Shown here: positions 9,942 through 38,489 of the stretch, in pieces
Numbering within the stretch: the stretch's first letter is position 1
How the letters are laid out: every line of letters begins with the position of its first letter
Source of the DNA: a virus
Taxonomy: Duplodnaviria > Heunggongvirae > Uroviricota > Caudoviricetes
Length of the DNA: 39,782 nt
Virus record (IMG/VR): IMGVR_UViG_2687453623_000005
Direction: 5' to 3' (one strand)
Notes under the pieces: generated by a model
The model's input: the letters and a program-made list of their open reading frames with translations, nothing else
Database searches by the model: none
Told to the model about the DNA's origin: nothing
Made by a program: the position numbers and the translations under genes

Positions 9942-9945
9942 ACCA

Positions 9946-10260: not shown

Positions 10261-10343
10261 TCTGATAATTGTATGTGAACTAATAAAATACAGACCAACA
10301 CATCATTCTGGCACCCTTGCTAACAGGGTGCCAATGTTTCAAA

Positions 10344-11186
10344 TCATGATGAAATTGCCGAAGTTTTTTTATCGTGCTGAAGTACCGCAAATGCCATTAA
10401 AACCTCAAGAGAATAGCGGCGATAATACTTAACAAAACCATAATAAAATACTCGGGATGCAGCAATACAAAACAAGAGAAGAAAACAAAAAGGTAACAGT
10501 CTGATATTTATATCTATTAAAAAGGATAGAAGGAGCAGGAACATAAGCAACCAGACTGAAGCGAGAAAAACAAATGTAATGTTTCTACAAAAACCATACA
10601 AAGCAACATAGTTTTGCATTTTCACCTGATGATTTTTAGAATGTTCATACACATAATGATAAGCAAGGCGAAAAAGATCGCCCCTCAAGCCCTTACGTCG
10701 ATATAGCGTAGATACAGAAAAAACATTTATATAACCATCTCGTATTTGCGGCCAAAAGACTTTAATAAGTATAGAATGCAGTGTGGTTTTATGATGTTCT
10801 GCTTTATCAAAAGCTGATACAGGAAATAAAAAAACTCCACGAATAAAATTAACTATACTGAACTTAGTATTATGTCGTTTTATTTTCAGGGAGCTTCTTT
10901 TAGAAAACAGATAAATTGAAGGATACCCAAGTTTACTGTTCATGTATTTTTCAATTAAACAGGATGATAGAATAGATATGAAGTGACCTGAAATATATGA
11001 TAGAACGATTAATACCACATATATAAATACACTTATTATTTCTTTATATTTCAGGATATGGTTAAGAATACCTTCTATATAAACAGGGTTAATTTCAATA
11101 GAAAACAAAAAAAGGATAAACAGGAATAACCCACCTGGAATTAGATAGCCCAAAAAGTCATAAAATGAAAACGGATTCTGTGTCAC
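10344..11186 (-). CDS. Polytopic membrane protein, 280 aa, unknown function, very AT-rich
   Basis: Multiple hydrophobic segments. GTG start preceded by GGGGGA. Downstream gene of a two-gene minus-strand operon. Confidence 0.6.
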   Translation of the reverse strand: MTQNPFSFYDFLGYLIPGGLFLFILFLFSIEINPVYIEGILNHILKYKEIISVFIYVVLIVLSYISGHFISILSSCLIEKYMNSKLGYPSIYLFSKRSSLKIKRHNTKFSIVNFIRGVFLFPVSAFDKAEHHKTTLHSILIKVFWPQIRDGYINVFSVSTLYRRKGLRGDLFRLAYHYVYEHSKNHQVKMQNYVALYGFCRNITFVFLASVWLLMFLLLLSFLIDINIRLLPFCFLLLFCIAASRVFYYGFVKYYRRYSLEVLMAFAVLQHDKKTSAISS

Positions 11187-11225
11187 ACTTCCCCCTGTGT
11201 TACTTGTAAATTAAAGGGTAAAACA

Positions 11226-11723
11226 TTATTTGTTTTTCCGTAAAGGATTAGCTTTCCATCTTCTTACTAACCATTCGAATTCTTGATATGTAGTATCCGA
11301 ATTAATGCTTTCTCTGATTGCTTTAATTAATGGCTCGGCAATATCATATGTCTCTACAACTGTTGTGTAAGATGTTCTTTTTATCATTTTTTCATCATAA
11401 ATACCTTCACGAATACTTACAGCAACTCGCTCGTAAAAATTTAAAATATATTGAAATTTTCGACGCTCGGCCATTTCTTCATCTGTTATTATGCAACCAT
11501 CACAAGGAAAAACATAAGAACGAAATGATTTGCCTGAACGATGCACTTGTTTCAGGGTATGCAATGACTCTATATATTGCATATCTTGCCGACTCTCAAA
11601 AAGAAAGTTGGCCGTTTGAGTTTTTTTTGCGGTACGCACATTGTAGATAATGGTTCCAATGGCAACCAAAACGCCAAGCAGAACAATAGCATTGCTGATG
11701 ATTTGTAGTGTTATTGGGTTCAT
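11226..11723 (-). CDS. Single-pass membrane protein, 165 aa: N-terminal TM helix plus soluble domain, unknown function
   Basis: N-terminus ITLQIISNAIVLLGVLVAIGTIIY is hydrophobic. Upstream gene of the operon. Confidence 0.6.
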   Translation of the reverse strand: MNPITLQIISNAIVLLGVLVAIGTIIYNVRTAKKTQTANFLFESRQDMQYIESLHTLKQVHRSGKSFRSYVFPCDGCIITDEEMAERRKFQYILNFYERVAVSIREGIYDEKMIKRTSYTTVVETYDIAEPLIKAIRESINSDTTYQEFEWLVRRWKANPLRKNK

Positions 11724-11743
11724 CCTATTTCATCCATAAAAAA

Positions 11744-11764
11744 GGCGGGGAGCAAATCCCCGCC
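11744..11764 (-). terminator. Hairpin GGCGGGGA-N5-TCCCCGCC with T-run on the minus strand; alternatively part of the cos region
   Basis: Seen directly. Partial resemblance to the G-rich P2/186 cohesive-end sequence. Confidence 0.35.
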
Positions 11765-11920
11765 TCATTAGAGGTCAACGTAGCTTAGAAACCATCAAAT
11801 TCATCATACATTTTTTTCATATCAACCCCCTCATAGAAATCATAACCACGTTTTGTGGTTTTTGTGACGTATAAACTACATCAAAGGCAAGCCACGGTCA
11901 AATATATAGGCATGCTTACC

Positions 11921-12019
11921 TGCACAAAAGTGCACAAATTTGCACAATTTTTTTGAACGACTTTTTACCCTTCCGGCCCGCATGGCGGCTGGATCCGTCA
12001 AGGATCCGTGCGTGCACAA
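11921..12019. repeat. Phased TGCACAA repeats (11921, 11931, 11941, 12013) plus a GGATCCGT direct repeat (11991, 12002)
   Basis: Seen directly; three copies at exact 10-bp spacing in a 700 bp non-coding stretch. Confidence 0.5.
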
Positions 12020-12446
12020 AAAAACGCGCTTTTTCTGCGCGCAGGTGACGGGGGAACAGCCCGCGTTTCAGGGGGTAAATAGCATTCCCTGAACGATGTC
12101 GCAGAGACACAACAGAATGGCCATATTTCTCACGCTGAGCATGAAAAAGGCGTGAGGGCTTTTGATTTGATGGGGTGAAAGGTAAGGCCGTCAAAATCGC
12201 ACTGAGGCAGCGAGAACATGCAGTCAACGCGGTGGAATTGCGTAAGAGTCTGACCGTCGATGGTGGCGATAAACTGGAAGGCGTCGTGAAATTATCTGAT
12301 TGATACAGGAGCTGGAGAGCCGGGGCATAAATTTTTTATGCCCCGGCGAAGCAGCAGACAAGCGAAGCGCGTCAGCGATACGGCACCTTGCCGACCATAC
12401 TTCATAAGTGCAAAATACGAGCAAAGAAATCAATGGAGGCTGTCTT

Positions 12447-12971
12447 ATGGTCATTAATTACAAGCAGTTAAGAGAAAAACGGGAGCAGGTAAAGGAGAGC
12501 TTTCGCCGCAATGAAGATCTGACCCCGCTTGTACGCCTTGCCCAGGGCATTGTTGATGCTTATGAAATCTCGCTGGAGCTGCCATCACAGACCTGGACAG
12601 ATAGCGACGGTAATCGCCAGCATTACGTTTCATGCGGACTGGAAGCAGCCGAAGGATTTCGCAGAATGCCTTTATCCCAGATCCCTGCCGCTACCCCCAA
12701 AGCACGGGGCAGCAATGATGAGCGAAAACTGACTTTTAGTATTGAAACGGTGGTTGACGACACACCTGGCGAAGTCGCGTTCGTGCACACTCCTGTTTCG
12801 ATCGCAATGTATAACGATGAAATACAGGTTCGCGTTAATAATAATATCGTGCCACTTAAAGAAGGTAATTCACCCTACACCACCGTTTGTGAAGCCATTC
12901 AATATTACGTTCTCTCTGAAATTGATAATCTCAAGCCTGACGGCACCCAGAAAATGGTTCAACTCTGGTAA
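12447..12971 (+). CDS. Hypothetical protein, 174 aa, between cos-like region and portal gene
   Basis: ATG at 12447 with GGAGG ribosome-binding site; followed by a bidirectional terminator. Confidence 0.55.
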   Translation: MVINYKQLREKREQVKESFRRNEDLTPLVRLAQGIVDAYEISLELPSQTWTDSDGNRQHYVSCGLEAAEGFRRMPLSQIPAATPKARGSNDERKLTFSIETVVDDTPGEVAFVHTPVSIAMYNDEIQVRVNNNIVPLKEGNSPYTTVCEAIQYYVLSEIDNLKPDGTQKMVQLW

Positions 12972-15783: not shown

Positions 15784-15937
15784 TGCTCCCCCTGAGTAAT
15801 TACAGGAAGATTACCCGCGCGCGAAACTGTTCTCCTTAACCCTCTGTTCTGACTGTTTTCTTACAACAAAAGCCCTTTGTATCAGCCTGTTACGCTTTGC
15901 CATCATGACTGAAGAACCAGTCAGAGGGGCAAAAACT

Positions 15938-20206: not shown

Positions 20207-20598
20207 AGCTCTGGCCCACGCTTGGCGTCGCTTTCCTTCTGATTACATCCATGCGTCTGTCGTGGTCGCTGGGCCGGGAGAACGCCAGAAACGAAGCGCA
20301 GGCCAGCACCCTGAAAAGTACCGTCGACACACTGAATATCATCAGCGCCGGGGTACAGGATATGCAGCAGGTGCTGGCTCAGCTCCGCGCGGAAAATCAG
20401 CAACGCAATCAGGACGGAGAGGTAAGACGTGAACAGCTACGCAACGATATTGCAAAAGATGAATGCGCCCACGCTTTGCCTGACGCTCGTTTTACTGACA
20501 GGTTGCGCAGGCACGCAGAACGCGCCAGGGCCAGCGCCGTCAGTCCGGCTTATACCGCAGACGCTGACCATGCCGGTAACGCCTCCCCCCTTCCCTGA
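20203..20598 (+). CDS. Inner-membrane spanin (LysB/Rz-like)
   Basis: N-terminal TM helix followed by a coiled-coil-like region; ATGA overlap with endolysin stop. Confidence 0.65.
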   Translation: MKLWPTLGVAFLLITSMRLSWSLGRENARNEAQASTLKSTVDTLNIISAGVQDMQQVLAQLRAENQQRNQDGEVRREQLRNDIAKDECAHALPDARFTDRLRRHAERARASAVSPAYTADADHAGNASPLP

Positions 20599-20740
20599 CC
20601 CACCCACATGGGGAAACCTCGGAATATGGGGCGACCGCCTTCTGGATGCACTGGAAACCTGTAACGCGGATAAACGGGCCATTGCTGAACTGGATAAGAG
20701 AATAGCCGAACTGACACACCAGACGGGAGTAACACAATGA
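20459..20740 (+). CDS. Outer-membrane lipoprotein spanin (LysC/Rz1-like), embedded in and extending past the i-spanin gene
   Basis: Lipobox LLTGC after a signal peptide; proline-rich segment PVTPPPFPDPP. Confidence 0.65.
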   Translation: MNAPTLCLTLVLLTGCAGTQNAPGPAPSVRLIPQTLTMPVTPPPFPDPPTWGNLGIWGDRLLDALETCNADKRAIAELDKRIAELTHQTGVTQ

Positions 20741-22614
20741 CCAGTAAGAACTTTGCACTGATTACAGCCATGACACAGGCTGAACTGACTCAAAAGGTGA
20801 ATGAACATCTTGCGAAAGGGTGGCATCTTCAGGGGGAGACGCGGGTTGCCTACGAACCCGGCACCCCGTGGTATCTAATGCAGGCAATGGTGGCCGATGG
20901 CACTACAGACATCTCACCTGATTCCCCCCAGCACGGCAGCGTGCCGGAGTGGTATTACGTGGTGGTACTTGCTGGTCAATCCAATGCCATGTCATATGGT
21001 GAGGGAATGCCGCTGCCGGATTCTTACGATGCGCCCCACCCACGCATTAAGCAACTGGCCCGTCGCAACACAGTGACTCCCGGTGGTAAAGCATGCGCAT
21101 TTAACGACATCATTCCGGCAGACCACTGCCTGCATGATGTTCAGGATATGAGCGCACTGAATCACCCGAATGCAGACCTGAGCAAAGGGCAGTATGGCTG
21201 TGTCGGACAGGGCTTGCATATTGCCAAACGCCTGTTGCCTTACATTCCACAGAATGCCGGGATTTTACTGGTTCCATGCTGTCGTGGTGGTTCGGCATTC
21301 ACCCAGGGCGCGGAGGGGACATTCAGCGAGTCCACAGGAGCCAGTCAGGATTCGGCTCGCTGGGGTGTGGGTAAACCTTTATATCAGGACCTGATTTTGC
21401 GCACGAAGGCCGCATTGCAGAAAAACCCAAAAAACATGCTGCTGGCCGTATGCTGGATGCAGGGCGAATTTGACATGAGCGCCGCTACGTACTCACAGCA
21501 ACCTCCGCTGTTTACGGCCATGCTGAAACAGTTTCGTGCGGACATTACCGAGTTTAACACGCAGTGTCATGGAGGCAGAGCGGCAAGTGTGCCATGGATT
21601 TGTGGTGACACGACGTATTACTGGAAAAACACCTACGGCACGCAGTACGACACCATTTACGGGGCGTACAAAAACAGGGAGAGCGACAACGTTTTCTTTG
21701 TGCCGTTCCTGACCGATGGTAGTGGCAACAATACCTCCACCAACGCACCAACGGAAGATCCGGATGCTGCAAGTGAGGGATATTACGGTTCGGCATCCCG
21801 AACGAACAAAAACTGGGTATCATCAAATCGCCAGACGCATTTCAGCTCATGGGCGCGTCGTGGCATTATTCCCGATCGTATGGCAACCGCTATTCTGAAC
21901 GTAGCCGGTCGCACCTTAGCCTTCATCAGTGGTAAGGCACCGGAAATCAAACCCTCGCCCGGCGGCGACACGCCATCGGGGCCGTCTGAAGATGCATCCG
22001 TACGCACAATCTCCCTGTTGCCGACAGCCGGAGATGCTGCTGCGCAGGGCTGGAGCATTAAGAATGGCGGAATTCAGTTGTCAGAGGGTGTATTTAAGAT
22101 CACCAAGCAGAGCAATAAAGCCTGGTCCCTGACGCGCCCGGTGGATGACGCAGTCTCCCTGCTGACACGGGGTGGCAGACTGAGCTGTAAGTTTCGACTG
22201 TCAGGCGCACTGACCAACAATCAGTTCGGTCTGGGAATTTATCTGTATACCGATGTAGCGTTACCTGACGTCGTGGCGATGACCGGGACTGGTAACCCGT
22301 TCCTGATGTCGTTCTTCACCCAGACCACAGACGGCAAACTGAATCTGATGCATCACAAGAAAGCAGGAAACACAAAGTTGGGCGAGTTCGGGAATTACAG
22401 TAACGACTGGCAGACGCTGGAGCTGGTGTTCACCGCCGGCAGTGCCACGGTTACTCCGAAACTGAATGGAGTGGCTGGCCCGGCATTCCAGGTCATAAAA
22501 GACAGTCTGACACTGGGGCTGAATGCGCTGACGTTAACTGATATCACTAAAAATGCCGCGTACGGCGTCGATATCGGCAGCCTGGTGCTGGAAATCAATA
22601 ATCCCGCAGCATAA
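20737..22614 (+). CDS. DUF1737 + SASA-domain sialate O-acetylesterase (NanS-p-like moron), 625 aa
   Basis: VVVLAGQSNAMSYGEG matches the GQSNM esterase motif. N-terminal 50 aa resemble DUF1737. Confidence 0.75.
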   Translation: MTSKNFALITAMTQAELTQKVNEHLAKGWHLQGETRVAYEPGTPWYLMQAMVADGTTDISPDSPQHGSVPEWYYVVVLAGQSNAMSYGEGMPLPDSYDAPHPRIKQLARRNTVTPGGKACAFNDIIPADHCLHDVQDMSALNHPNADLSKGQYGCVGQGLHIAKRLLPYIPQNAGILLVPCCRGGSAFTQGAEGTFSESTGASQDSARWGVGKPLYQDLILRTKAALQKNPKNMLLAVCWMQGEFDMSAATYSQQPPLFTAMLKQFRADITEFNTQCHGGRAASVPWICGDTTYYWKNTYGTQYDTIYGAYKNRESDNVFFVPFLTDGSGNNTSTNAPTEDPDAASEGYYGSASRTNKNWVSSNRQTHFSSWARRGIIPDRMATAILNVAGRTLAFISGKAPEIKPSPGGDTPSGPSEDASVRTISLLPTAGDAAAQGWSIKNGGIQLSEGVFKITKQSNKAWSLTRPVDDAVSLLTRGGRLSCKFRLSGALTNNQFGLGIYLYTDVALPDVVAMTGTGNPFLMSFFTQTTDGKLNLMHHKKAGNTKLGEFGNYSNDWQTLELVFTAGSATVTPKLNGVAGPAFQVIKDSLTLGLNALTLTDITKNAAYGVDIGSLVLEINNPAA

Positions 22615-26083: not shown

Positions 26084-28069
26084 ATGAGTACCACAACACG
26101 TAAATTTAAAACCGTTATCACCGATACGGGTGCCAAAAAATTAGCTCAGGCAGCCGCGCCAGATGGTAAGCCTGTCCGCCTGACTCATATGGCCGTGGGC
26201 GACGGTGGCGGCACGTTGCCCACACCAGACAGTAAGCAGACCCGTCTGGTGCATGAGGTGTGGCGACATACTGTTAATCGCGTCATCCTGGACGCAACAC
26301 ATCAGAACCGCATTATTGCGGAGCTGGTTATTCCTCCTGAAACGGGCGGATTCTGGATCCGGGAAATTGGTGTATTTGATGAGCACGGCGATTTAATCGC
26401 GGTGGGCAATACTGCCGAAAGTTACAAGCCAGCCGTTGCCGAAGGGTCCGGTCGTGCACAAACATTTCGCACCATTCTGACCGTATCCAGCACTGCCACC
26501 GTGGTGCTTACCGTGGATAACACCATGGTGATGGCCACAGTGGATTACGTGGATGACAAACTGAAAGAGCATGAACAGTCACGACGTCACCCGGACGCCT
26601 CGCTGACCGCAAAAGGCTTTGTTCAACTCAGTAGCGCCACTAACAGCGTGTCTGAAACGCAGGCTGCAACGCCGAAAGCAGTAAAGGCCGCGTATGACCT
26701 TGCTAACGGTAAATATACTGCGCAGGATGCCAGCACGACGCGAAAAGGCCTTGTCCAGCTCAGTAGCGCCACCAACAGCACGTCTGAAACGCAGGCTGCA
26801 ACGCCGAAAGCAGTAAAGGCCGCGTATGACCTTGCTAACGCAAAATATACCGCTCAGGACGCCACGACGGCACAAAAAGGGATAGTCCAGCTCAGTAGTG
26901 CCACCAACAGCACGTCTGAAACACTGGCCGCGACATCGAAAGCTGTTAAGGCGGTAATGGATGAAACGAACAAGAAAGCGCCCTTAAATAGTCCTGCACT
27001 GACCGGAACGCCAACAACACCAACTGCGCGACAGGGAACGAATAATACCCAAATCGCAAGCACGGCTTTCGTTATGGCTGCGATTGCCGCCCTTGTAGAT
27101 TCGTCACCTGATGCACTGAACACGCTGAACGAGCTGGCTGCGGCGCTGGGCAACGACCCGAATTTTGCGACCACCATGACTAACGCGCTTGCGGGTAAGC
27201 AACCGAAAGATGCCACCCTGACGGCGCTGGCCGGACTTACTACTGCGGCAGGCAAGTTTCCGTATTTTACGGGGAATGATGTCGCCAGCCTGGCAACCCT
27301 GACAAAAGTCGGGCGGGATATTCTTGCGAAATCGACCGTTGCTGCCGTTATCGAATACCTCGGTTTACGAGAACTCGGCACAAGCGGGGAGAAAATACCG
27401 TTACTCAGTACAGCGAATACCTGGACCAATCGACAAACATTCAGCGGTGGCCTTTCTGGGGAACTGTCCGGCAATGCCGCTACTGCAACAAAGCTGAAAA
27501 CAGCACGAAAAATTGCTGGAGTTGGTTTTGATGGTTCTAGCGATATTTCAATTAGTGCCAAAAATGTCAATGCATTTGCACTCCGACAAACAGGTAATAC
27601 TGTTAATGGTGATACATCCGTTGGATGGAATTGGGATAGTGGTGCATATAACGCCATGATTGGTGGTGCATCTGCATTAATTCTTCACTTTAATATAAAT
27701 GCTGGTAGCTGTCCTGCCGTACAATTCCGTGTGAATTATAAAAATGGTGGCATTTCCTACAGGTCGGCTCGTGATGGTTATGGGTTTGAATTAGGTTGGT
27801 CAGATTTCTATACCACGACACGAAAACCTTCAGCGGGAGATGTTGGTGCATATACGCGGACAGAATGTAACTCAAGGTTTATTACAGGTATTCGCCTTGG
27901 CGGTCTGTCATCTGTTCAGACATGGAATGGTCCCGGCTGGTCTGACAGGTCAGGTTATGTCGTTACGGGTTCAGTTAACGGAAACCGTGATGAATTAATT
28001 GATACAACACAGGCAAGGCCAATTCAGTATTGCATTAATGGGACGTGGTATAACGCGGGGAGTATTTAA
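26084..28069 (+). CDS. H: Tail fibre protein, P2 gpH-like, 661 aa; the C-terminal variable part lies inside the invertible segment
   Basis: Conserved N-terminus, internal repeats, AT-rich variable C-terminus. Confidence 0.9.
26612..26970 (+). repeat. Three tandem 132-bp (44-aa) repeats inside the tail-fibre gene
   Basis: Repeat starts at 26612, 26744 and 26876; third copy diverges. Confidence 0.8.
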
Positions 28070-28071
28070 CG

Positions 28072-28604
28072 ATGATGCACTTAAAAAACATTACTGCTGG
28101 CAACCCTAAAACAAAAGAGCAATACCAGCTAACAAAGCAATTTAACATCAAATGGCTTTATTCAGCTGATGGAAAAAACTGGTATGAGGAACAAAAGAAT
28201 TTCCAGCCAGACACTTTGAAAATGGTCTATGACCATAACGGCGTTATTATTTGTATTGAAAAGGATGTTTCAGCAATTAATCCGGAAGGCGCAAGCGTCG
28301 TTGAATTACCTGATATTACAGCAAATCGCCGGGCTGATATTTCGGGGAAATGGATGTTCAAAGATGGCGTAGTGGTAAAGCGAACTTATACCGAGGAAGA
28401 GCAGAGCAACAAGCGGAAAATGAAAAGCAGAGCCTGTTGCAACTTGTCAGGGATAAAACTCAGCTATGGGACTCACAGCTACGGCTGGGCATCATTTCCG
28501 ACGAGAATAAACAAAAATTAACCGAGTGGATGCTCTATGCGCAGAAAGTCGAATCCACAGACACCTCCAGCCTGCCAGTAACATTTCCCGAACAACCTGA
28601 ATGA
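28072..28604 (+). CDS. G: Tail fibre assembly protein (Tfa/gpG-like), interrupted by an apparent -1 frameshift near 28395..28410
   Basis: Track ORFs 28072..28521 and 28350..28604 together reproduce a full Tfa, judged by comparison with the minus-strand copy. Confidence 0.7.
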
Positions 28605-28632
28605 GACAAGGCCCGATAACGGGCCTTAATTT

Positions 28633-29159
28633 TTATTCAGGCTTTTGTGGCCATTCAGGATTTGCCGTATCCACACGGTTGACCAGAACACTGTAGCGTT
28701 CCCATGCTTCCAGTCGTGTGCGTTCCTCGTCTGTTGCCATATTCAGCCTGACAGCGCGTTCCAGCGGCTGGATGACTGATTCAGCTTCGGAAAGCAATGC
28801 GGCCTTTTGTGATTCGGCCTGTTGTTGCTGTTCGTCAGCCGTATAAATCCGTTTAACCACAGCTCCGTCCTTAAACATCCACTTACCGGAATCATCGGTC
28901 CGACGATTGGCCGTTATATCGGGAACCTCGACGACGCTAAAACCTTCGGGATTAAGCGTGGAGGCATCTCTGGTGATGGCGACAATAATATTATTTTCAT
29001 CGTAAACAATCTTTATGGTGTCTGGCTGAAAGTTTTTCACTTCCTCATACCAGTTTTTTCCGTCCTCAGAGTAAAGCCAGATAACTCCGTGTTTCTTTGT
29101 TAACTCATACTGTTCAGTGTTTTAGCATTACCCGCTTTTATGTTCTTTAAGTGCATCAT
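28633..29159 (-). pseudogene. Alternative tail fibre assembly gene (tfa'), frameshifted near its 5' end
   Basis: Reverse strand begins [14 protein letters not shown], then a stop; the out-of-frame continuation matches the plus-strand Tfa. Confidence 0.6.
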
Positions 29160-29990
29160 ATTAATCGCTCTTTTACAGTGCATTATATACTTTGAACGGT
29201 CTGTAATAAACACCCGCTATATTATCGCAGAGTTAGACCCTGTATCCTGAACATTAATACCAGACAATACATGACTGAAGGCACTGGAAATTCCATGTTC
29301 GCCAGTTGTTCACTCCATAATATTGCTGTAACCAAGTCGAACATCTTTCACATAACGGAATCAAACCGTAATCGAGATTAACACGCCCGTAATATGTCTA
29401 TACGAATGCCGGGACAGCGCATTCCATGTACTGAACAGCATGAACAGTACCGCCAAGAGCGAATACCTGTAATACAACCTGAGTTCACCATTCATTGTAC
29501 CAGCAGATAACGCAGTGCACCAACATCTCCTGCTGAAGGTTTTCTGGTGGTGGTGTAAAATTCGGACCAGTCGCTTTCAAAACCATAACCATCACGGGCT
29601 GAACGATAAAAAATACCGCCATTTTTATAATTAATCCGAAACTGAGCTGCAGGACAACTTCCGTCTCCATATAAAAATGAATAATTAACGTTGATGCACC
29701 ACCAATATTTGCGTTATAGGCTCCGCTACTCCAGTTCCATCCAACTGCTTTATCACCATTAACGGTGCTTCCTGTTTTCCTAAGGCAAACGCACCAACAT
29801 GACTTGCTTTTAATGTGATATCGGAGGAACCATCAAAAGCCACATTGCTTATTTTCCTGGCAGTTTTTAATTTTGCAGCTGTAGAAGCATTGCCGGATAG
29901 TTCACCAGAAAGGCCACCGCTGAATGTTTGTCGATTAGTCCAGGTATTCGCTGTACTGAGTAACGGTATTTTCTCCCCGCTTGTGCCGAG
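29160..29990 (-). pseudogene. Alternative tail-fibre C-terminal variable region (H'), disrupted by at least two frameshifts
   Basis: Reverse-strand translation matches the plus-strand H C-terminus in three different frames. Only a 61-aa ORF (29485..29670) survives. Confidence 0.5.
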
Positions 29991-30070
29991 TTCTCGTAAA
30001 CCGAGGTTTTAAATAATGGCCGTTTCTGGCCTGCATGGCATGATTTGCGCTTTTGGACGGGAGATTCAGT

Positions 30071-30670
30071 GTGCTGATTGGCTATGTAAGGGTATCAACA
30101 AATGACCAGAATACAGACCTGCAACGAAACGCTCTTGTTTGTGCAGGATGTGAACAAATATTTGAAGATAAATTAAGCGGGACAAAGACAGACCGACCGG
30201 GATTAAAACGCGCTTTAAAGCGCCTTCAAAAAGGTGACACGCTGGTTGTCTGGAAACTGGATCGCCTCGGGCGAAGCATGAAACATCTGATTTCTCTCGT
30301 CGGGGAACTACGGGAGCGAGGGATTAATTTTCGCAGTCTGACCGACAGCATAGACACATCTTCTCCAATGGGGCGTTTTTTCTTCCACGTGATGGGTGCC
30401 CTGGCTGAAATGGAACGTGAATTAATTGTTGAACGTACACTGGCCGGGCTGGCGGCAGCGCGCGCAAGGGGGCGCACAGGCGGACGTCGACCGAAGCTGA
30501 CAAAAGAACAGCATGAGCAAATAGCAAGGCTAATCAAAAACGGGCACGACAGAAAACAACTGGCAATAATTTACGGCATTGGCACATCGACGATTTATCG
30601 TTATCACCCTGTAGGCGATATACAGACTGAAGAAACAACCGGGCAGACTCAGGAAAATGAAAACCGCTAA
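30071..30670 (+). CDS. Serine recombinase, DNA invertase of the Gin/Pin/Cin/Hin family (GTG at 30071; track ORF starts at TTG 30053)
   Basis: LIGYVRVSTNDQNTDLQRNAL...LVVWKLDRLGRSMKHL is near-identical to Mu Gin and e14 Pin as recalled. Confidence 0.95.
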   Translation: MLIGYVRVSTNDQNTDLQRNALVCAGCEQIFEDKLSGTKTDRPGLKRALKRLQKGDTLVVWKLDRLGRSMKHLISLVGELRERGINFRSLTDSIDTSSPMGRFFFHVMGALAEMERELIVERTLAGLAAARARGRTGGRRPKLTKEQHEQIARLIKNGHDRKQLAIIYGIGTSTIYRYHPVGDIQTEETTGQTQENENR

Positions 30671-30690
30671 TCTGACCATTAGCGGTTTTT
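30662..30690 (+). terminator. Intrinsic terminator after the invertase
   Basis: Hairpin AACCGCTAAT-N6-ATTAGCGGTT followed by a T-run. Confidence 0.55.
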
Positions 30691-30698
30691 GTGTTAAA

Positions 30699-31193
30699 TC
30701 AGAACAGCCCTTTAACTGAACTGGCCGCGCTGTTAAGAGATGATGTCACCTTATCTTTGAAGCCGGACAGCATATCACTGAACGATGAGGATTGCAGGCG
30801 CTCCCGCAAATCCTCATCACAGCGTTCAAGAGTCAGTGAAAATTCTATCTTTTTCGCCTTACCGTAGCGATCAAACTCGGAGCGGGTCGTATTCGTTTCA
30901 GTCAGGACATACATGCCGTAAATCTGCCCGACGCCATCAATCAAAGGCCAGGGTCGTCCTGTATACGCCTGCGTGGTCAGCAGCGACAGCGACACTTCGC
31001 CACCTGTAATTTCAGGATAAAGCACACCAGAAAGAACGATGCGATCATCACCTGCACCGATATACTGCCAGCTTGCTGAACGGTTAACGCGTTCATTTTT
31101 CACATGCCGCCAGCTTTTGTTTTGCTGTAACTGCTGATGCGGCAGCGTGCGCAGCTCAAAAACAAACATGCCGTAGATCATCATCATGGCCAT
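30699..31193 (-). CDS. U: Tail protein, P2 gpU-like
   Basis: Size and position downstream of the tape measure gene. Confidence 0.8.
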   Translation of the reverse strand: MAMMMIYGMFVFELRTLPHQQLQQNKSWRHVKNERVNRSASWQYIGAGDDRIVLSGVLYPEITGGEVSLSLLTTQAYTGRPWPLIDGVGQIYGMYVLTETNTTRSEFDRYGKAKKIEFSLTLERCDEDLRERLQSSSFSDMLSGFKDKVTSSLNSAASSVKGLF

Positions 31194-31199
31194 GACTCC

Positions 31200-34043
31200 T
31201 CAATCTTTATCGTAAAAACTGCCACGCCCGGCACGGGCGCGCCGTTCCATTTCTGCCCTGACCATTTCACCGACCAGTTTCGCCAGTTCGCGGGGATTCT
31301 GCGTAACAACGTTATGCAGATGAACATGAATTTCACCACCAAATCCGGAGGCAACAGGCTCCCGGTTACGGGAAGTTACAGGAACTGATGCCACTGGAGA
31401 TCGTATAGCCTCCGCCACCGGGCGGGAGCTGGCCGCAACAACAGGGACCAGCGCCGGAGGCAGCGGAGCCGGGACCACGGGTGTGATATTAATTGCGGGG
31501 GCAGGCTTACTGACCTGCGCAATCTTCCGCTCCTGCCACTCCCCACGAACAGCAAGTGCTCGGGGCAGGTTTTTAAAGACAATATCGCCGGGGCCAATGC
31601 GTTTTTTCGTCTCCTCAACCAGCTTACCTGTGTTATCAGCAATTTTGCTGAGTCTGCGCAGCGTACCGGTATTGCTGTCTGTGAGCGGTTTATTGTCTTT
31701 GGGGTTATCACCTCCGGTGCCATTGCCATTTTCCACAGGCTTCGGCGGATTGATTTTCGCCAGGTCCCCCTGAAGCAAGGCAACCTTGTCCTGAAGAATG
31801 GCCGCACGCTGTGCGTCTTCGATTTTCTTGCGCGCCCTTTCCGCTTCATCCGGAAGCACACCAAGCTTTTCAAGTATCCACGCCAGCGTATCCAGCAACA
31901 TTTTTGCAGGTGTCAGAACAAGTTGTAACGCACCGCCAAGAACGTTACCGAATATCTCGCCAGCACTGGTACATTTATCCAGAGTTTCCTTGCTGGACTC
32001 CATCGGAGACAGCAGCGATTTAAACCAGTTAAACACCTGGCTGATCCCACTCCCGATTGCGTCAAAAACAGGACCAAACCGTTCAAAGGTTTCGCGCAAC
32101 GGGGTCAGCCTTTCCATAATCCCGCTGAACACCCCGGCAAAAAATGCCCTGATGGGATCCCAGTATTTCCAGATGAGAACGGCAGCTCCGGCAAGCGCAG
32201 CCACGATAAGGCCGACCGGACTGAACAACGCCCCGATAGCGCCCCCCAGTAACGAAACGGAACCCGTCACCATTCCCCATAGTGCTGGCAGGAGTCTGAC
32301 AGCATTCATTGAACCGGTCAGGAGGGAAAAGCCAAGACGCAGTTTTGCCAGCGGGCCAGCAAGCACACCAATAGCCAGCGACAACGAGCCAACCGTTGCA
32401 GTCATTGCCAGCAACGCACCGCCTGCTATCAGTAGCTGGCGCGTCAGTACCGGATGGGCCTGCGCCAGCGAGGTGATTTTTTCAAGCACCCGCGTGAGCC
32501 ACTGCGTGACAGAACGCAGCGGACCGTCAACCAGATCACTGATGCGAATACGAAGACCTTCCCATGCGCTGTCGAGATTTTTCAGGTCCCCATCAAGATT
32601 ATCGGCCATTACTTTTGCAACGCGATCGGCCTCTCCCCTTGCCCCCTGCAATTCTCTGGTCAGTTTTTGCAGCTCTCCTGAACCAGCCGCCGCAACAAGC
32701 GTCTGCAAACCAACGAACGCCTCTTCTCCGGCGATGTCCTTGAAGAAGGAAACCTGGTCCACCTGTCCGTATTTTTGTGTCGCCTTATAGAGATCAAGCA
32801 GCACATCCTCCATCGGGCGCATTTTGCCTCTGGCGTCAGCAACTGACACCCCCAGCTCTTTCAGCGCATCAGCCGCAGCTTTTGGCGGTGATGCAAGGCG
32901 GGACAGACTTGCGCGCATGGCCGTACCAGCATCGCTTCCACGAAGACCATTATTGGCAAGCATCCCGGCCATGGCTGCCGCTTCTTCAAGACTGATACCA
33001 AGTTTTGCGGCAACCGGACCGGTATACTTCATGGTTTCGCCCAGCGCGCGTAAATCAGTATTGGTCCGGGTGAATGCCGCTGTCAGCGTATCGCCAACCC
33101 GGTCCATTTGATCGGCTGTCAGGTTGAACTGTGTGAGGATATTGGAGCCTATATCAGCCGTCTCGCCGAGTTCGACGCCACCTGCCAGCGCCATATTAAG
33201 AACACCGGGCAATGCGGCCTGAATGGCCTGCGGAGTAAAACCAGCCATTGCCAGAAAGCTCTGCCCACTGGCGGCATCACTCGCAGTAAACTGTGTTTCA
33301 GAGCCAAGTTTTAACGCCTGCTCACGCAGCGCCTTAAACTGCGGGCTGTTTTTGTCGATTCGCGTCAGCGCCTGAACGCGGGACATCTCTTTGCCGAACC
33401 CGATCGCGGGCTGCAAAAAACGCCCGGCAGCATAGCCGCCCGCCGCTGCCGCACCAATTGCCAGCGCACCACCTGTTTTCAGTTTTCCCGCGGTTTCCTG
33501 CGCGCGCGAATACCGCTCACGAGCCTGCGTTACACGCGCAAGCGCCTGCCGTTCGCGTTCAAGCTGGTTGTTGTATTGTTCGGTGCGTCTGATGGCCTGC
33601 TGGATGGTGTTATCGCTGCCTGTCAGGGAAATGCCGTGGCGTTTCAGTTCTCCGCCAAGCTCCCGCATTTTCTGAATTTCCCGTGTGCGCGATTCATTCA
33701 GGCGTTCAAGCCGGGTGCTTAACTGCTGCATCAGCTTTTGTTGTTTTTCGCTGAGCACTGTACCCGTGCGTTGTAACTGATTAAGGGCGTTAAGCTGGCG
33801 TCGTGCTTTCACGATACCCGCATCCGCTTTACTGACAGCGTCGCGGGCGCGCTCAAATGAACGCGCCTGACGCTCGAGATTTTTGATCGCCCCCTGCGTT
33901 CGCTGAATGGAGTCACCAAACTGCCCCATCAGGCGGCGGGCGTTTTCGGCAGGCCGGGTCAGCCTGTCAACGGCGCTGAAAGCGACCCGGATGTCAAGAG
34001 TCTTCATTATCTGCATTCCCGCTGCGAAGTGCCGCCCGCTCAC
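31200..34043 (-). CDS. T: Tail tape measure protein, P2 gpT-like, 947 aa
   Basis: Length, coiled-coil N-terminal region, Gly/Ala-rich hydrophobic middle. Confidence 0.9.
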   Translation of the reverse strand: MSGRHFAAGMQIMKTLDIRVAFSAVDRLTRPAENARRLMGQFGDSIQRTQGAIKNLERQARSFERARDAVSKADAGIVKARRQLNALNQLQRTGTVLSEKQQKLMQQLSTRLERLNESRTREIQKMRELGGELKRHGISLTGSDNTIQQAIRRTEQYNNQLERERQALARVTQARERYSRAQETAGKLKTGGALAIGAAAAGGYAAGRFLQPAIGFGKEMSRVQALTRIDKNSPQFKALREQALKLGSETQFTASDAASGQSFLAMAGFTPQAIQAALPGVLNMALAGGVELGETADIGSNILTQFNLTADQMDRVGDTLTAAFTRTNTDLRALGETMKYTGPVAAKLGISLEEAAAMAGMLANNGLRGSDAGTAMRASLSRLASPPKAAADALKELGVSVADARGKMRPMEDVLLDLYKATQKYGQVDQVSFFKDIAGEEAFVGLQTLVAAAGSGELQKLTRELQGARGEADRVAKVMADNLDGDLKNLDSAWEGLRIRISDLVDGPLRSVTQWLTRVLEKITSLAQAHPVLTRQLLIAGGALLAMTATVGSLSLAIGVLAGPLAKLRLGFSLLTGSMNAVRLLPALWGMVTGSVSLLGGAIGALFSPVGLIVAALAGAAVLIWKYWDPIRAFFAGVFSGIMERLTPLRETFERFGPVFDAIGSGISQVFNWFKSLLSPMESSKETLDKCTSAGEIFGNVLGGALQLVLTPAKMLLDTLAWILEKLGVLPDEAERARKKIEDAQRAAILQDKVALLQGDLAKINPPKPVENGNGTGGDNPKDNKPLTDSNTGTLRRLSKIADNTGKLVEETKKRIGPGDIVFKNLPRALAVRGEWQERKIAQVSKPAPAINITPVVPAPLPPALVPVVAASSRPVAEAIRSPVASVPVTSRNREPVASGFGGEIHVHLHNVVTQNPRELAKLVGEMVRAEMERRARAGRGSFYDKD

Positions 34044-34532
34044 GCCAGCTAACCACTTCGCCGGGCGTCATCATGAAGATTTCGGCGGGCGACCAGTTGA
34101 AAATGGCGGCAATATCCGCCACCAGATCTTCGATGTGCTCAAAGCACACCAGGGTGATTACGCTGCCGTCTCCTGCACGCTCTTCGCGCCAGAGTCTGGC
34201 TCGCTCATAAAATTTACAGCCACAGCGCACAACTGAATAAAATCGCGTGACGACATTTTTTTAATCATCACTTCATCCAGTCGTGGCGAGGTCACGCGAG
34301 GCAACAGCGTGAACATGGTATCCGCTTTCAGATTCAGCACATCAGACAGCGACAGACCACGCAGGGATCCCGCCTGCTCAATAGCCCCGGTGATCTCCAC
34401 ATATGTGATTTTTTCGGCACCACGCTCAATTGGCCGGGAAAGTTTTACACCACGTTCGACAGCCATATCCTCACCTGACGTCACATCATCCGCTACGGTG
34501 TTATTCCGGGTTTCAGTATCGATATCTTTCAT
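33994..34532 (-). CDS. Tail assembly chaperone fusion E+E' produced by programmed -1 frameshift at the A7 run (plus-strand T7 at 34256..34262)
   Basis: The -1 frame is open from the slippery run to the stop at 33994; same architecture as P2 E/E' and lambda G/GT. Confidence 0.6.
34158..34532 (-). CDS. E: Tail assembly chaperone, gpE-like
   Basis: Position between FII and T; AAGGAG ribosome-binding site. Confidence 0.8.
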   Translation of the reverse strand: MKDIDTETRNNTVADDVTSGEDMAVERGVKLSRPIERGAEKITYVEITGAIEQAGSLRGLSLSDVLNLKADTMFTLLPRVTSPRLDEVMIKKMSSRDFIQLCAVAVNFMSEPDSGAKSVQETAA

Positions 34533-34587
34533 CAGTTGTCTCCTTTTCAGTCAGAGGCGACGCACTGCGCCGCCTGCATATTACTTA

Positions 34588-35100
34588 TCAGCCAAGCCCA
34601 AGCGCGGAACGAATGCGGTCAGGCACAATGTCCTTGCCGTCCTTCCGGTAGATGTGGTTCAACAGGTCGATTTCCCACAGCGGGCGATCGTTAACGCTCA
34701 GCTTGTAGTAGGTGTTTTTGACAGCGTAAGTGTGTGATGTGGCTTCGCCCTGTTTGGCCTCCCCCATATCAATTTCCGTCACACGCCCGCGCATCTCGAT
34801 TTCATACAGATCGCTTTCTGCATCGGTGTAATATTCACCCGCAAAACGCAGCAGCGTGCCGTCAATCGTGCCGCCATACTTAAGGAACAGTGCACGAACA
34901 GCTCCCCCCATGACAAAGCTCGCATCAAGCGCGGAGTCGTCCAGACCGAGATCAATACTTACTGCTCCCATCATGCCACCACCACGATAGCTGTCGGTTT
35001 TGCGCGTCAGTTTGGGCGGCGTGACGGATGTCACTTTACCCACTTCGTTTTCACCATCCACAAACAACGTAAAAAAGCGAAGATGTTTTGGTACAGCCAT
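34588..35100 (-). CDS. FII: Tail tube protein, P2 gpFII-like
   Basis: Size and synteny. Confidence 0.9.
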   Translation of the reverse strand: MAVPKHLRFFTLFVDGENEVGKVTSVTPPKLTRKTDSYRGGGMMGAVSIDLGLDDSALDASFVMGGAVRALFLKYGGTIDGTLLRFAGEYYTDAESDLYEIEMRGRVTEIDMGEAKQGEATSHTYAVKNTYYKLSVNDRPLWEIDLLNHIYRKDGKDIVPDRIRSALGLG

Positions 35101-36284
35101 CAGGCACCTCCCAGCACCGCAAATGCGGGACCAAAGAATTCATCAGTAAACGTCTGGTAAAGCTCCATGTCTTCCAGCGGGGGAACGGGCGTATATTTGT
35201 AGCGAATACGCACACGCCCCTGACGTAAATCCGTGGTGCCGTTATCCACCACGTCATACCAGCACTCCGCGCCAATCAGTTTCCCGGCAGTAACCAGCGA
35301 ATCCAATTTTGCCCTGATGGCACTGATAACATCCTTCACGTTCGCAGGCGTCAGTGGACTGTCGATGGTTTCAAACTGCGCTTCCGCAATTGAATCAGCC
35401 AGCACCTGTGCGGTTCGGGTATACACCTCAAAGATGTAGGCGTTCGTTTCCGGTGTGCGGTTGCCCCAGAAGCGGAACCCGTTACGACGAATAATGGTCG
35501 TGATTTCTTTGTTGTTGAGGCTGTTGGCATCACTGTCTTCGGCCTGTAACGACCAGAACACATGCCTCGACATCCCCAGCACATTTTTAACCGGAACGTT
35601 GGACAGCGATTTGTGCCAGCCCTGCTCATGGTCAATGTACGCACGAAGGCCGCACGCATAAGCAGGCGCGGGGAACGTTTCGTTTTTGCCACTTTTCGGG
35701 TTGTAGGCGATGAAGTCAGGCCATAAGAGCATCACCTCACGTTCGTTGAATTTCTGGCGGTAGGTAATCGCCTCAGCCATCGTGTTACAACCATGACATG
35801 TGGCATACACAAACGCGCGCAGTTTACCCGCAATCACGCACAGGGATTTTGTCACCGCCTCCGTGTCCAGCTCCGGCGCGGCCAGAATACGCGGACGGTA
35901 TCCGATGCTTTCATCCTGCTCTGCAACAAGCAGCGCATACATCCCCGTATAGCTGCCGTCAGATTCAGAACCACCGATAACCAGTTGATCCTGCGTCCTA
36001 CCGCCTTCTTCTTTGTGTTCAGCCACGCGAACGACGATCACTTTTGTGCTCACCTGGTCTGCGATAGCCTTAAGCGCACGATAAAGCGTCCCCGTAGTCC
36101 CGCATTTTCCCAGCACGTCATTGACGCGGGTCAGCAGTGTGGGCTTGTTCAGCGGGAACAGCTCCGCATCCGCATCATCCGCCGTTGCCACGATACCGAT
36201 AACGCTGGAATCAACATCATTAATCGCTGTTACCAGGTCGGTACTTTCCGTGACACGGGCACCATGAAAACGAGTTTCACTCAT
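35100..36284 (-). CDS. FI: Contractile tail sheath protein, P2 gpFI-like, 394 aa
   Basis: Motifs DADAE.FPLNKP, KLRAF, GWHK.LSNV and LIRR.GFRFWGNRT match P2 FI as recalled. Confidence 0.95.
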   Translation of the reverse strand: MSETRFHGARVTESTDLVTAINDVDSSVIGIVATADDADAELFPLNKPTLLTRVNDVLGKCGTTGTLYRALKAIADQVSTKVIVVRVAEHKEEGGRTQDQLVIGGSESDGSYTGMYALLVAEQDESIGYRPRILAAPELDTEAVTKSLCVIAGKLRAFVYATCHGCNTMAEAITYRQKFNEREVMLLWPDFIAYNPKSGKNETFPAPAYACGLRAYIDHEQGWHKSLSNVPVKNVLGMSRHVFWSLQAEDSDANSLNNKEITTIIRRNGFRFWGNRTPETNAYIFEVYTRTAQVLADSIAEAQFETIDSPLTPANVKDVISAIRAKLDSLVTAGKLIGAECWYDVVDNGTTDLRQGRVRIRYKYTPVPPLEDMELYQTFTDEFFGPAFAVLGGA

Positions 36285-36441
36285 AGCTTCAGCCCCTTGT
36301 ATCCGTTAAATGATTCGGCAACAATCATCACCCACCACGCGCGTAATCTCACCCCTGCGCCGTTCTCCCGCCACGGCGACAACAAAAAGCAGTAACCCCC
36401 TCCGCACGCACATGCGACCATGCCGCACAGGGAGGGAGCAG

Positions 36442-37551
36442 ATGACCGACACCACCATGCAATTGCTCAGTCAGGGCACAGACCCCGTGAAAATGCCGGA
36501 TTTTGATATTCTCGCGGAGGGTAAAACGCTGTCAGGCGTGGCAGAGCGCCTGATGAGCCTGTCACTGACCGACAACCGGGGATTTGAGGCGGACCAGCTC
36601 ACCATCACGCTGGATGATGCGGATGGTCAGTTGCAGCTACCGCCACGGGGCGCGCGCCTGACGGTTCTCATTGGCTGGAAAGGAGAACCGCTGACAGAAA
36701 AAGGCACTTACATTGTTGATGAAATCGCTCACGAAGGACCGCCGGACAGGCTGACTGTTTCAGCCAGAAGCGCAGATTTTCGGGATGAATTTAACGTTAA
36801 ACGTGAGGTGTCCTGGCATGATGTGACCGTTGAGCGTGTGGTATCCGCCATCGCTCATCGGTATGGTCTGAAACCGCAAATCAGCGAAATGCTGATGGAT
36901 ATCGAAATCGACCACGCCGACCAGACCGAAGAAAGCGACATGTCCTTCCTTACGCGCATGGCGGAAATGCTGGGCGCAATCACCACGGTAAAAAGCGGTA
37001 ATCTGTTATTCATCATGCCCGGCGGTGGCGTGAACGCACAGGGCCAGCCGTTGCCATCGTTTGCCATCACACGCAGCAGCGGCGATCGCCATCAGTTCCG
37101 CATTGCTGACCGCGAAGCGTATACGGGGGTACGCGCTTACTGGCTTGATCTTAATTACGGGAAAAAGAAAAAAGTCAGCGTGAAACGCCGTAAACCGCCA
37201 AAACCCAAAAAGGAGAAAAGCAGCAGCCGCGAAGGTGATTATATGGAAGGCGCGGAAGGCAATGTGTTTGTGTTACGCAAGACTTATCAGAACGAGCAGG
37301 CAGCAAGACGCGCAGCGGCGGCAAAGTGGCAGCAACTACAACGCGGAGCCGCATCATTCTCCATCACGCTGGCGCGTGGACGTGCAGAACTCTACCCCGA
37401 AATGCATGGCACGGTAACAGGATTTAAAAGCGAGATTGATAATCAGGACTGGATCATTGCAAAAGCCGAGCACACCATTGATAACAGCGGTTTTACCACG
37501 CAGCTTGAGCTTGAGGCAAAAATCCCGGAATGGATAGCGGAAACAGAGTGA
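36442..37551 (+). CDS. D: Tail protein/late control protein, P2 gpD-like
   Basis: ATG at 36442 after GGAGGGA; size and position next to ogr. Confidence 0.85.
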   Translation: MTDTTMQLLSQGTDPVKMPDFDILAEGKTLSGVAERLMSLSLTDNRGFEADQLTITLDDADGQLQLPPRGARLTVLIGWKGEPLTEKGTYIVDEIAHEGPPDRLTVSARSADFRDEFNVKREVSWHDVTVERVVSAIAHRYGLKPQISEMLMDIEIDHADQTEESDMSFLTRMAEMLGAITTVKSGNLLFIMPGGGVNAQGQPLPSFAITRSSGDRHQFRIADREAYTGVRAYWLDLNYGKKKKVSVKRRKPPKPKKEKSSSREGDYMEGAEGNVFVLRKTYQNEQAARRAAAAKWQQLQRGAASFSITLARGRAELYPEMHGTVTGFKSEIDNQDWIIAKAEHTIDNSGFTTQLELEAKIPEWIAETE

Positions 37552-37591
37552 GCAACTTAGAATAGGCAGCACCACGTTAAGGGAGGTCGCT

Positions 37592-37852
37592 ATGTTCCGT
37601 TGTCCGCTTTGTGGCGCATCTGCCCGTATCCGCACCAGTCGTCCGGAAAATGATTCAAACACCGTGCGGCAAAAGTATTACCAGTGTAACAATCTGGAAT
37701 GCGGCGTATGCTTCTCAACACTGGAAGCTTTCCATAAATTCACATCAAAACACGCCTCCGGCGTTCACTCTTCAGAAGGTATCCCGTGGCATGATCTGCC
37801 AGCTTCACACAGGGGAAACAATCAGATGAGTTTGCCTTTATCTCAGAATTAA
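37592..37852 (+). CDS. ogr: Ogr/Delta-type zinc-finger late transcription activator
   Basis: MFRCPLCGASARIRTSR...YYQCNNLECGVCF matches the Cys4 motif of P2 Ogr. Confidence 0.9.
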   Translation: MFRCPLCGASARIRTSRPENDSNTVRQKYYQCNNLECGVCFSTLEAFHKFTSKHASGVHSSEGIPWHDLPASHRGNNQMSLPLSQN

Positions 37853-37940
37853 CAGGCAGAATTGCCGGAGTAACAAAAAAGCGATAGATTACGTGCGGGT
37901 GCCTTTCGGCTGATGGTCGGAGGGAATACCCGAAGGCCAG

Positions 37941-38126
37941 ATGTGGAAAGGCCCCGAGTCAACTTTAACGTTAACCCGAGGCCCTAACCATCTACCCTCA
38001 GCAAGTGATAGGTTAGCGCCTCCCCGAAAAAGGAGCAAGCGCTATGTCGCAAAAATCGCTTACGGCCATCACATTCTGCGTGACGGCAATCCTCATCATC
38101 TGGATGCTGCACGGTTCGCTGTGTGA
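37941..38126 (+). CDS. mok-like overlapping leader reading frame
   Basis: Track ORF begins upstream of the hok-like gene and overlaps it in another frame, as in hok/mok/sok loci. Confidence 0.35.
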   Translation: MWKGPESTLTLTRGPNHLPSASDRLAPPRKRSKRYVAKIAYGHHILRDGNPHHLDAARFAV

Positions 38127-38184
38127 AATACGGATGAGTTTCTGGGGAGCGGAGTTTGCGGCGTTCTTACAGTGTAAGCAGTAA
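38044..38184 (+). CDS. Hok/Gef-family type I toxin, 46 aa (MSQKSLTAITFCVTAILIIWMLHGSLCEIRMSFWGAEFAAFLQCKQ)
   Basis: N-terminal TM helix followed by SLCEIR and EFAAF, the conserved Hok core. AGGAG ribosome-binding site 8 nt upstream. Confidence 0.7.
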   Translation: MSQKSLTAITFCVTAILIIWMLHGSLCEIRMSFWGAEFAAFLQCKQ

Positions 38185-38277
38185 GGAAACCGCGACGGGG
38201 AAGGCAACTTCCCCGTCAATCGGTTGCCAGGGTAAAGGTCGAAAAGGCACCCTATTTCCAGTTGACGTGAACAACAA

Positions 38278-38310
38278 GCCCGCAGCGTAAAAACTGCGGG
38301 TTTTCTTTTT
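38278..38310 (+). terminator. Intrinsic terminator downstream of the hok-like gene
   Basis: Hairpin CCCGCAG-N8-CTGCGGG followed by TTTTCTTTTT. Confidence 0.6.
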
Positions 38311-38344
38311 GGTTCCCTCACTCATGAGGACACCAAAAAACAAA

Positions 38345-38373
38345 GCCCACAGCATAGAAGCTGTGGGCTTTTT
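38345..38373. terminator. Bidirectional hairpin terminator; probable serS terminator on the minus strand
   Basis: Hairpin GCCCACAGC-N6-GCTGTGGGC with an A-run before and a T-run after. Confidence 0.5.
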
Positions 38374-38489
38374 GCATTCAAAGATGGACGTTATATGGAC
38401 ACTTAAAAATAAAATCCATTTATTTTCAAATGATTAAACCTCTACTTAAAGCGCCCGCAGGCGCTTTTTAGATTCAGAAAAATTGGGTA

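Follow-up and report, generated by a model that had tools for sequence, protein, structure and literature searches.

The tail genes of phages P2 (genus Peduovirus) and 186 (genus Eganvirus) are organized in a single late operon, in which FI-FII-E-T-U-D lie on one strand downstream of the promoter pF/pJ. D has no promoter of its own there, and in P2 it is the last gene of the pF operon. The collinear order FI-FII-E-T-U-D-ogr/B, which a first-pass annotation of the DNA described here had given for both phages, is present in both records. In P2, four late promoters with the consensus TGT-N12-ACA are activated by Ogr (PMC3931495). The present analysis concerns the counterpart of this operon in a 39,782-nucleotide stretch of DNA from a virus of the Caudoviricetes (IMG/VR record IMGVR_UViG_2687453623_000005), the whole of which is referred to as the window. 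It shares with P2 and 186 the same tail gene set, the E/E′ frameshift, a D gene followed by an ogr/B-type activator gene, and late promoters, predicted in the window, with a dyad at about -55. The canonical order of a single late operon is not present: FI-U occupies the minus strand and D-ogr the plus strand. As judged from sequence comparison, this reversed sheath-to-U block is very probably the fixed, normal layout of a large P88-like group of P2-related phages.

Distribution of the reversed layout

The placement of FI, FII, E/E′, T and U on the minus strand (30699-36284), between a plus-strand invertase gene and plus-strand D-ogr, is borne out by the open reading frames (ORFs) and by Pfam (Table 1), and the 157-bp gap before D extends over 36285-36441, between the start codons of FI and D. 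Three readings of this arrangement had been offered: a lineage-specific layout, a genuine rearrangement separating D from its operon, and a mis-assembly. When the 10.5-kb region 28000-38500 was used as the query, P88, Xuanwuvirus P884B11, Citrobacter phage phiSM and others matched 29.4-38.3 kb as a single megablast piece of 93-96% identity, and the annotations of these three phages have the same strand pattern as the window. A 901-bp probe covering the FI/D junction (35900-36800), counted at a coverage of at least 80%, was detected in 1356 of 5426 complete Escherichia coli genomes, about a quarter, and a probe of the invertase/U junction in 620 of them. A synthetic flipped-back junction, in which the 3′ end of the invertase gene is joined to the 5′ end of FI, served as a negative control and was present in none of the 5426. 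These results bear directly on the possibility that the assembler placed the FI-U segment in the wrong orientation. The departure from the P2 order speaks for such an error, and nothing further does. Against it, both junctions recur in independent phage isolates and closed genomes, among them the same FI/D junction in separately sequenced phages and in the 1356 E. coli genomes, and the "corrected" junction occurs in no genome. A mis-assembly is thus excluded, its probability being practically nil.

The range of the layout extends well beyond E. coli. In a scan of GTDB for D proteins, each bacterial species being represented by one genome, 47 loci were retrieved, their D proteins being 65-99% identical to that of the window. 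The order U- T- E- FII- FI- D+ ogr+ is found in every fetched locus that keeps both FI and D (about 43 of the 47), and the remaining loci are truncated at D-ogr. Wherever the flank reaches far enough, J+ I+ H+ lie upstream, with one locus (L049) as the sole exception. The hosts of the reversed loci include Salmonella, Edwardsiella, Serratia, Erwinia, Pantoea, Klebsiella, Kosakonia, Brenneria and Symbiopectobacterium; the scan also returned Pectobacterium and Rouxiella. The reversed layout is likewise present in SEN5 (Senquatrovirus, D 63% identical) and Kp4871-3 (Reginaelenavirus, D 70%). The phages found to be collinear, namely P2, 186, Fels-2, Cartapus (Elveevirus), ST11-OXA48phi15.3 (Kapieceevirus) and YenM_42.18 (Firavirus), have D proteins at most 54% identical to that of the window. 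Fels-2 had been suspected of carrying a reversed block, which was ruled out by its collinear record.

Phages with the reversed layout are functional, since P88 and phiSM form plaques (PMC5285337, PMC6456863) and electron microscopy shows contractile tails in SEN4 and SEN5 (PMC5261728). Such viability argues against a recent rearrangement limited to this strain, in which the separation of D from its operon might have disabled the prophage. The position of D, which does not follow U here, is in keeping with this explanation. The order is nevertheless kept down to 63-65% D identity across many genera, and all tail genes are intact in the window, including the E/E′ frameshift cassette, whose -1 frame is open to 33994 and encodes the conserved GpE-type C-terminus. 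A recent event of this kind is therefore vanishingly unlikely. A separate observation concerns phiSM, for which a long non-contractile tail and siphovirus morphology were reported (PMC6456863). In its deposited genome (OR565851), the P2-type set of sheath, tube and baseplate genes is complete and 98-100% identical to that of the window, which does not match the reported morphology.

The layout has a direct use in annotation: a reversed sheath-to-U block beside D in a P2-like prophage is not a sign of mis-assembly or decay. It marks a large clade, comprising Xuanwuvirus, Senquatrovirus, Reginaelenavirus and many unclassified prophages of Enterobacterales, and could serve as a quick classifier.

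Origin of the reversal and the neighboring invertase

The lineage-specific arrangement is the correct reading of the three, as close relatives share the orientation as their normal state, the outcome that had been named beforehand as refuting the other two. The idea of a genuine rearrangement that separates D from its operon holds in an evolutionary sense, in that D is not co-transcribed with FI-U, and fails as an event in this strain. On the sequence comparisons given above, the reversal is old and fixed in one clade of Peduoviridae, which includes at least three genera of the International Committee on Taxonomy of Viruses (ICTV). The simplest history is an inversion in situ: the FI-FII-E/E′-T-U module was very probably inverted together with its late promoter in a common ancestor and then retained. 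The result is the normal functional plan, in which J-I-H-G is followed by the reversed U-T-E-FII-FI and then by D-ogr. Such a history is favored because the FI-U proteins are about as similar to those of P2 as the flanking D and J-I-H.

The same comparison bears on a different origin, in which mosaic recombination with another myovirus brought in the FI-U module in reverse, with no inversion in situ. Phage genomes are mosaic, and the adjoining tail-fiber region has clearly been exchanged with P1/Mu-type phages. The identities to P2 are 46, 42, 34, 33 and 46% for FI, FII, E, T and U, against 49% for D and 51-61% for J/I/H. The block is therefore no more foreign than its neighbors, which makes the acquisition of the module quite unlikely; if it did happen, the end result and the present function would be the same. 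Two points weigh against the history of an old inversion in a single ancestor. The single origin is read from the bimodal D identity (at least 63% in inverted and at most 54% in collinear phages, among those tested) and not from a phylogeny. In addition, no paper explicitly discussing the inversion was found in the literature on Xuanwuvirus, P88, SEN4/SEN5 and Peduoviridae inversion. The reversal itself is already known, being evident from annotated genomes deposited for three ICTV genera.

The block directly follows a gene for a Gin/Pin-family DNA invertase, which makes a switchable inversion conceivable, with the invertase flipping FI-U and the genome caught in one of two states. The failure of the first-pass annotation to find inverted repeats around the block is confirmed, as the 42 inverted-repeat pairs detected in 28000-38500, of which the 25 longest were listed, include none that brackets it. 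The features of a Gin/Hin/Pin invertible segment are absent from FI-U: neither inverted repeats nor gix-like crossover sites are present at its ends, and no second orientation occurs among the 5426 genomes. Moreover, most reversed relatives have no invertase at this position, and Fels-2 and Cartapus, in which an invertase gene lies directly upstream of FI, are collinear. A switch of this kind is very improbable. For the same reason, the adjacency of the invertase to the reversed block is incidental. The invertase is the left neighbor of the block and not a part of it, and serves the invertible segment of the tail-fiber genes.

This true invertible segment is 27354-30010, bracketed by the sole gix-like pair, whose members lie in inverted orientation at 27354-27367 (minus strand) and 29997-30010 (plus strand). 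It contains the H tip and G and, on the minus strand, a second fiber-assembly gene and fiber tip. This alternative cassette seems to have decayed: the reading frame of G′ is interrupted between 29041 and 29159, and the alternative fiber tip (about 29160-29990) lacks a long ORF and shows 1-nt deletions when compared with the intact copy of E. coli 4/1-1. The region 28000-29170 is 91-95% identical to the S-U-U′ region of P1, Mu and D108.

Predicted late promoters in the FI/D gap

An example of one activator site serving two late operons is the pP/pO region of P2, where a single annotated activator site lies midway between divergent mapped starts (pP at 3016 and pO at 3127), 111 bp apart. The dyad of this site, TGT-N12-CCA, is centered at 3071.5. 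The 157-bp FI/D gap of the window resembles this region, and we infer that it holds a pair of divergent Ogr-dependent late promoters sharing one dyad-symmetric activator site. In P2 the arrangement was mapped experimentally and occurs only between P and O; in the window, the second copy, between FI and D, is predicted.

When 40 distinct FI/D gaps were aligned, hardly any indels were seen within a core of about 105 bp, whereas the untranslated leaders differ in length. The dyad T(G/C)T-N12-ACA is present in 37 of the 40, and GACAACAA is nearly invariant. Conserved -10 elements lie about 45 bp to each side of it, scored at fixed offsets from the dyad centre. On the FI side, GAnnAT occurs in 37 of 37 relatives, with A2, A5 and T6 invariant, and its offset is that of the pP -10 of P2. 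On the D side, TGn followed by (A/G)AnnnT is found in 34 of 37, the three exceptions having a 1-nt insertion. With start sites placed 7 nt beyond each hexamer, the two predicted starts (~36317 and ~36428) are separated by 111 bp, and the dyad centre lies 55.5 bp from either one. A late promoter dependent on Ogr, Delta or B is characterized by a TGT-N12-ACA dyad about 55 bp upstream of the start, a -10 element and no good -35. The FI/D gap holds such a dyad with one mismatch and a -10 element on both sides, the starts being predicted. A candidate for the late promoter sought upstream of FI on the minus strand thus emerged from the alignment, in the form of a conserved dyad and the predicted -10 hexamer GATGAT. 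A dyad of this type, in the form TGT-N12-ACA, is also present in the gap of SEN4/SEN5 and Klebsiella Reginaelenavirus, where the reversed FI-U likewise faces D-ogr. These phages differ from the window in that D is only 63-70% identical and no invertase lies beside U; in SEN5 the FI/D gap is shorter, at 136 bp.

Further support comes from the divergent gap between the terminase (P) and scaffold (O) genes of this phage, which contains a matching activator box. The -10 elements there are at the same or nearly the same offsets and are conserved across relatives, and the P-side -10 matches the offset of the FI-side element. Exact GTTCT-N12-ACAAC has three matches in the window against 0.08 expected, an excess that is inflated, as the pattern was derived from two of those sites. 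The third exact copy, at 31922-31943 (minus strand) inside T, lacks a -10-like element at both expected offsets and was taken as a chance match. Inside a lysB-like gene, at 20262-20283, there is a near-copy, GTTCTCCCGGCCCAGCGACCAC, which closely resembles the FI/D box; the tail genes might be transcribed from it as an internal late promoter. It was also observed that the predicted pO -10 encloses the first ATG of the scaffold ORF (15905); the start that is conserved and has a ribosome-binding site is ATG 15938, as annotated in P88.

In the P88-type layout D needs a promoter of its own. In the proposed scheme, the activator site would be centered about 55 bp from each predicted start. Ogr bound at the dyad would direct the polymerase leftward through FI-FII-E/E′-T-U, ending at the hairpin 30660-30689, and rightward through D and then, by read-through, ogr. 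The scheme would copy the way in which one site serves pP and pO in P2. With a symmetric activator site, D could have come under late control through an inversion that brought pF directly upstream of it, provided that a -10 element lay at a suitable spacing. The symmetry of the site may in this way have made the ancestral inversion tolerable. On balance, it is somewhat probable that the FI/D gap is a second bidirectional Ogr late promoter on the pP/pO plan, that its symmetry allowed the inversion to be fixed, and that D-ogr forms a late unit of its own.

Several points weigh against this interpretation. The start sites are predicted from -10-like hexamers picked after the alignment had been viewed. 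A search for exact TGT-N12-ACA found nothing in the gap, where the left half-site is TCT and not TGT; the site was missed because of this one-base deviation, which becomes evident only from the alignment of relatives. A generic sigma-70 scan also found no site in the FI/D gap, which is expected for activator-dependent promoters and is not positive evidence for them. A further possibility is that the layout is normal for the lineage and D is not controlled by Ogr, the D-side element being a constitutive or otherwise regulated extended -10 and the dyad serving FI only. An extended -10 (TGn) can work without a -35 or an activator, and the D side also carries a conserved CGCGCGCG block. However, the same block, rich in guanine and cytosine (GC), is present on the P side of the P/O gap. 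The D-side -10 also stands at a constant spacing from the dyad in the relatives, and this spacing is the one seen for pO, both in P2 and in this phage. Control of D without Ogr is accordingly regarded as unlikely.

If the bidirectional promoter is real, the feedback loop of the D-ogr activator would be uncoupled from the transcription of the sheath and tube genes. The locus would then be a natural experiment in which one Ogr site was co-opted to drive a gene formerly without a promoter. The predicted divergent promoter with a shared activator is a modest, testable point on how P2-type late regulation tolerates genome rearrangement.

Features of the block and of the surrounding prophage

The positions of the block, its neighbors and the predicted elements are given in Table 1. 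The start of gpT in P88-type annotations corresponds to ATG 34007. D starts at ATG 36442, and the ORF-list start at 36310 is an in-frame extension upstream. The hairpin between the stop codons of the invertase gene and U has folding energies of -17.1 and -15.7 kcal/mol on the two strands (z about -4.9), and none of 200 shuffles folds as well; it is predicted to end the FI-U operon.

Table 1. Coordinates of the reversed block, its neighbors and the predicted regulatory elements in the window
Feature	Position	Strand	Basis or remark
Gin/Pin-family serine DNA invertase	30053-30670, likely true start near 30071	+	PF00239 Resolvase, HTH_7; annotated as DNA invertase in P88 and E. coli 4/1-1
Hairpin, predicted bidirectional intrinsic terminator	30660-30689	both	terminator scan; A-run on one side, T-run on the other
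gpU, tail protein	30699-31193	-	PF06995, E 5.5e-39; 46% identical to P2 U
gpT, tape measure	31200-34043 (ORF as listed)	-	PF10145
gpE	34158-34532	-	P88 and E. coli 4/1-1 have an annotated GpE-family ORF at this position
gpE + E′ extension	33994-34532	-	-1 frameshift, slippery AAATTTT at 34215-34209; sequence and ORFs
gpFII, tail tube	34588-35100	-	PF04985, E 2.1e-45
gpFI, tail sheath	35100-36284	-	PF04984, PF22671, PF17482
Predicted -10 hexamer of the leftward FI promoter, GATGAT	36324-36329	-	implied start near 36317
Predicted Ogr/Delta-type activator dyad, TCT-N12-ACA	36364-36381, centre 36372.5		within conserved box GTTCT-N12-ACAAC, 36362-36383
Predicted extended -10 of the rightward D promoter, TGcGACCAT	36412-36421	+	implied start near 36428
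gpD, baseplate hub / late control D	36442-37551	+	PF05954; 99% identical to P88 D, 49% to P2 D
ogr, Ogr/Delta-like C4 zinc-finger late activator (CX2C-X24-CX4C)	37592-37852	+	PF04606; translation
Matching activator box, GTTCT-N12-ACAAC	15846-15867		divergent terminase (P)/scaffold (O) gap of this phage

The window as a whole is a complete P88-like prophage (Xuanwuvirus-type, family Peduoviridae), flanked by dmsA and serS. It starts exactly at the stop codon of the minus-strand integrase gene (1-993), and its right end lies inside serS (38490-39782, minus strand). In genomes with identical copies, the prophage is located between dmsA and serS. Over its first 22 kb the window is 100% identical to the ST131 prophage record PV468777, and several other complete E. 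coli genomes hold identical segments. The P2-like structural gene set is present, as found by Pfam, by tblastn against P2 and in the annotation of identical copies by the Prokaryotic Genome Annotation Pipeline (PGAP). The set considered comprises Q (portal) and P (terminase), divergent from O (scaffold)-N (capsid)-M-L-X; the baseplate genes V-W-J-I; the fiber genes H-G; FI (sheath), FII (tube), E/E′, T, U and D; and an Ogr-type activator. By tblastn, J, I, H, FI, FII, E, T, U, D and ogr are 33-61% identical to their P2 counterparts.

The genome plan of Xuanwuvirus, including the reversed FI-U block, is shared by the window, as seen from the one collinear BLAST piece across both junctions and the same strand pattern. 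P88 and other members (P884B11, Citrobacter phiSM, phages 520873 and 500465-2, and the ST131 record PV468777) have the gene order of the window: the reversed U-T-E-FII-FI block, 93-96% identical across its length, the 157-bp FI/D gap, D-ogr and a hok-like gene at the right end. By ICTV convention, the limit for a genus is a nucleotide identity to the type phage of about 70% across the whole genome. The window is 95.9% identical to P88 over 69% of 1-25000 and 93.1% over 79% of 28000-38500; identity times coverage is thus roughly 66-73%, at the genus threshold, as calculated from two segments and not as a formal whole-genome measure. The window differs from P88 in its tail-fiber tip and invertible segment, which are P1/Mu-like, in an extra gene of 625 amino acids with DUF6645 between the lysis genes and R, and in the immunity/early left end, where the P88 match begins only at about 2.8 kb.

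Two differences from the PGAP annotation of the identical prophage in E. coli 4/1-1 were observed. For D (20543-21652), PGAP uses an internal start there, which gives 266 amino acids, and places a spurious antisense pseudogene over the 5′ end of the gene. It also marks the small terminase gene M with an internal stop (1891-2691). In the window, both D (369 amino acids) and M (266 amino acids) are full length.

Apart from the Hok/Gef-type toxin gene near 38100-38250, between ogr and the right prophage end, other cargo is found in three places. The DUF6645 gene, assigned from the annotation of identical genomes, is the ORF 20737-22614, located inside the late operon between the lysis genes and the tail gene R; P88 has only a 137-bp gap at this position, and PADLOC gave no hit for the ORF. 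Beyond a ParM-type plasmid segregation pair (8982-10260), the GC content drops to 36-38%, compared with about 55% elsewhere, in a stretch that together with the pair occupies 8982-12971. The stretch contains an ORF of 280 amino acids, weakly matched to Csx27 by PADLOC (E 1.1e-5), a DUF4760 ORF and an ORF of 187 amino acids, and it lies just before the portal gene, the position of old and tin in P2. PADLOC found nothing convincing among the cargo ORFs. Finally, Rfam matches to IsrK (5154-5228) and C4 antisense RNA (5264-5351) stand in tandem on the plus strand. The pair overlaps the start of the ORF 5097-5714, and P88 has a "derepression protein" gene in the same region. This suggests an antirepressor module of the P1/P7 type, controlled by antisense RNA, within a P2-like prophage.

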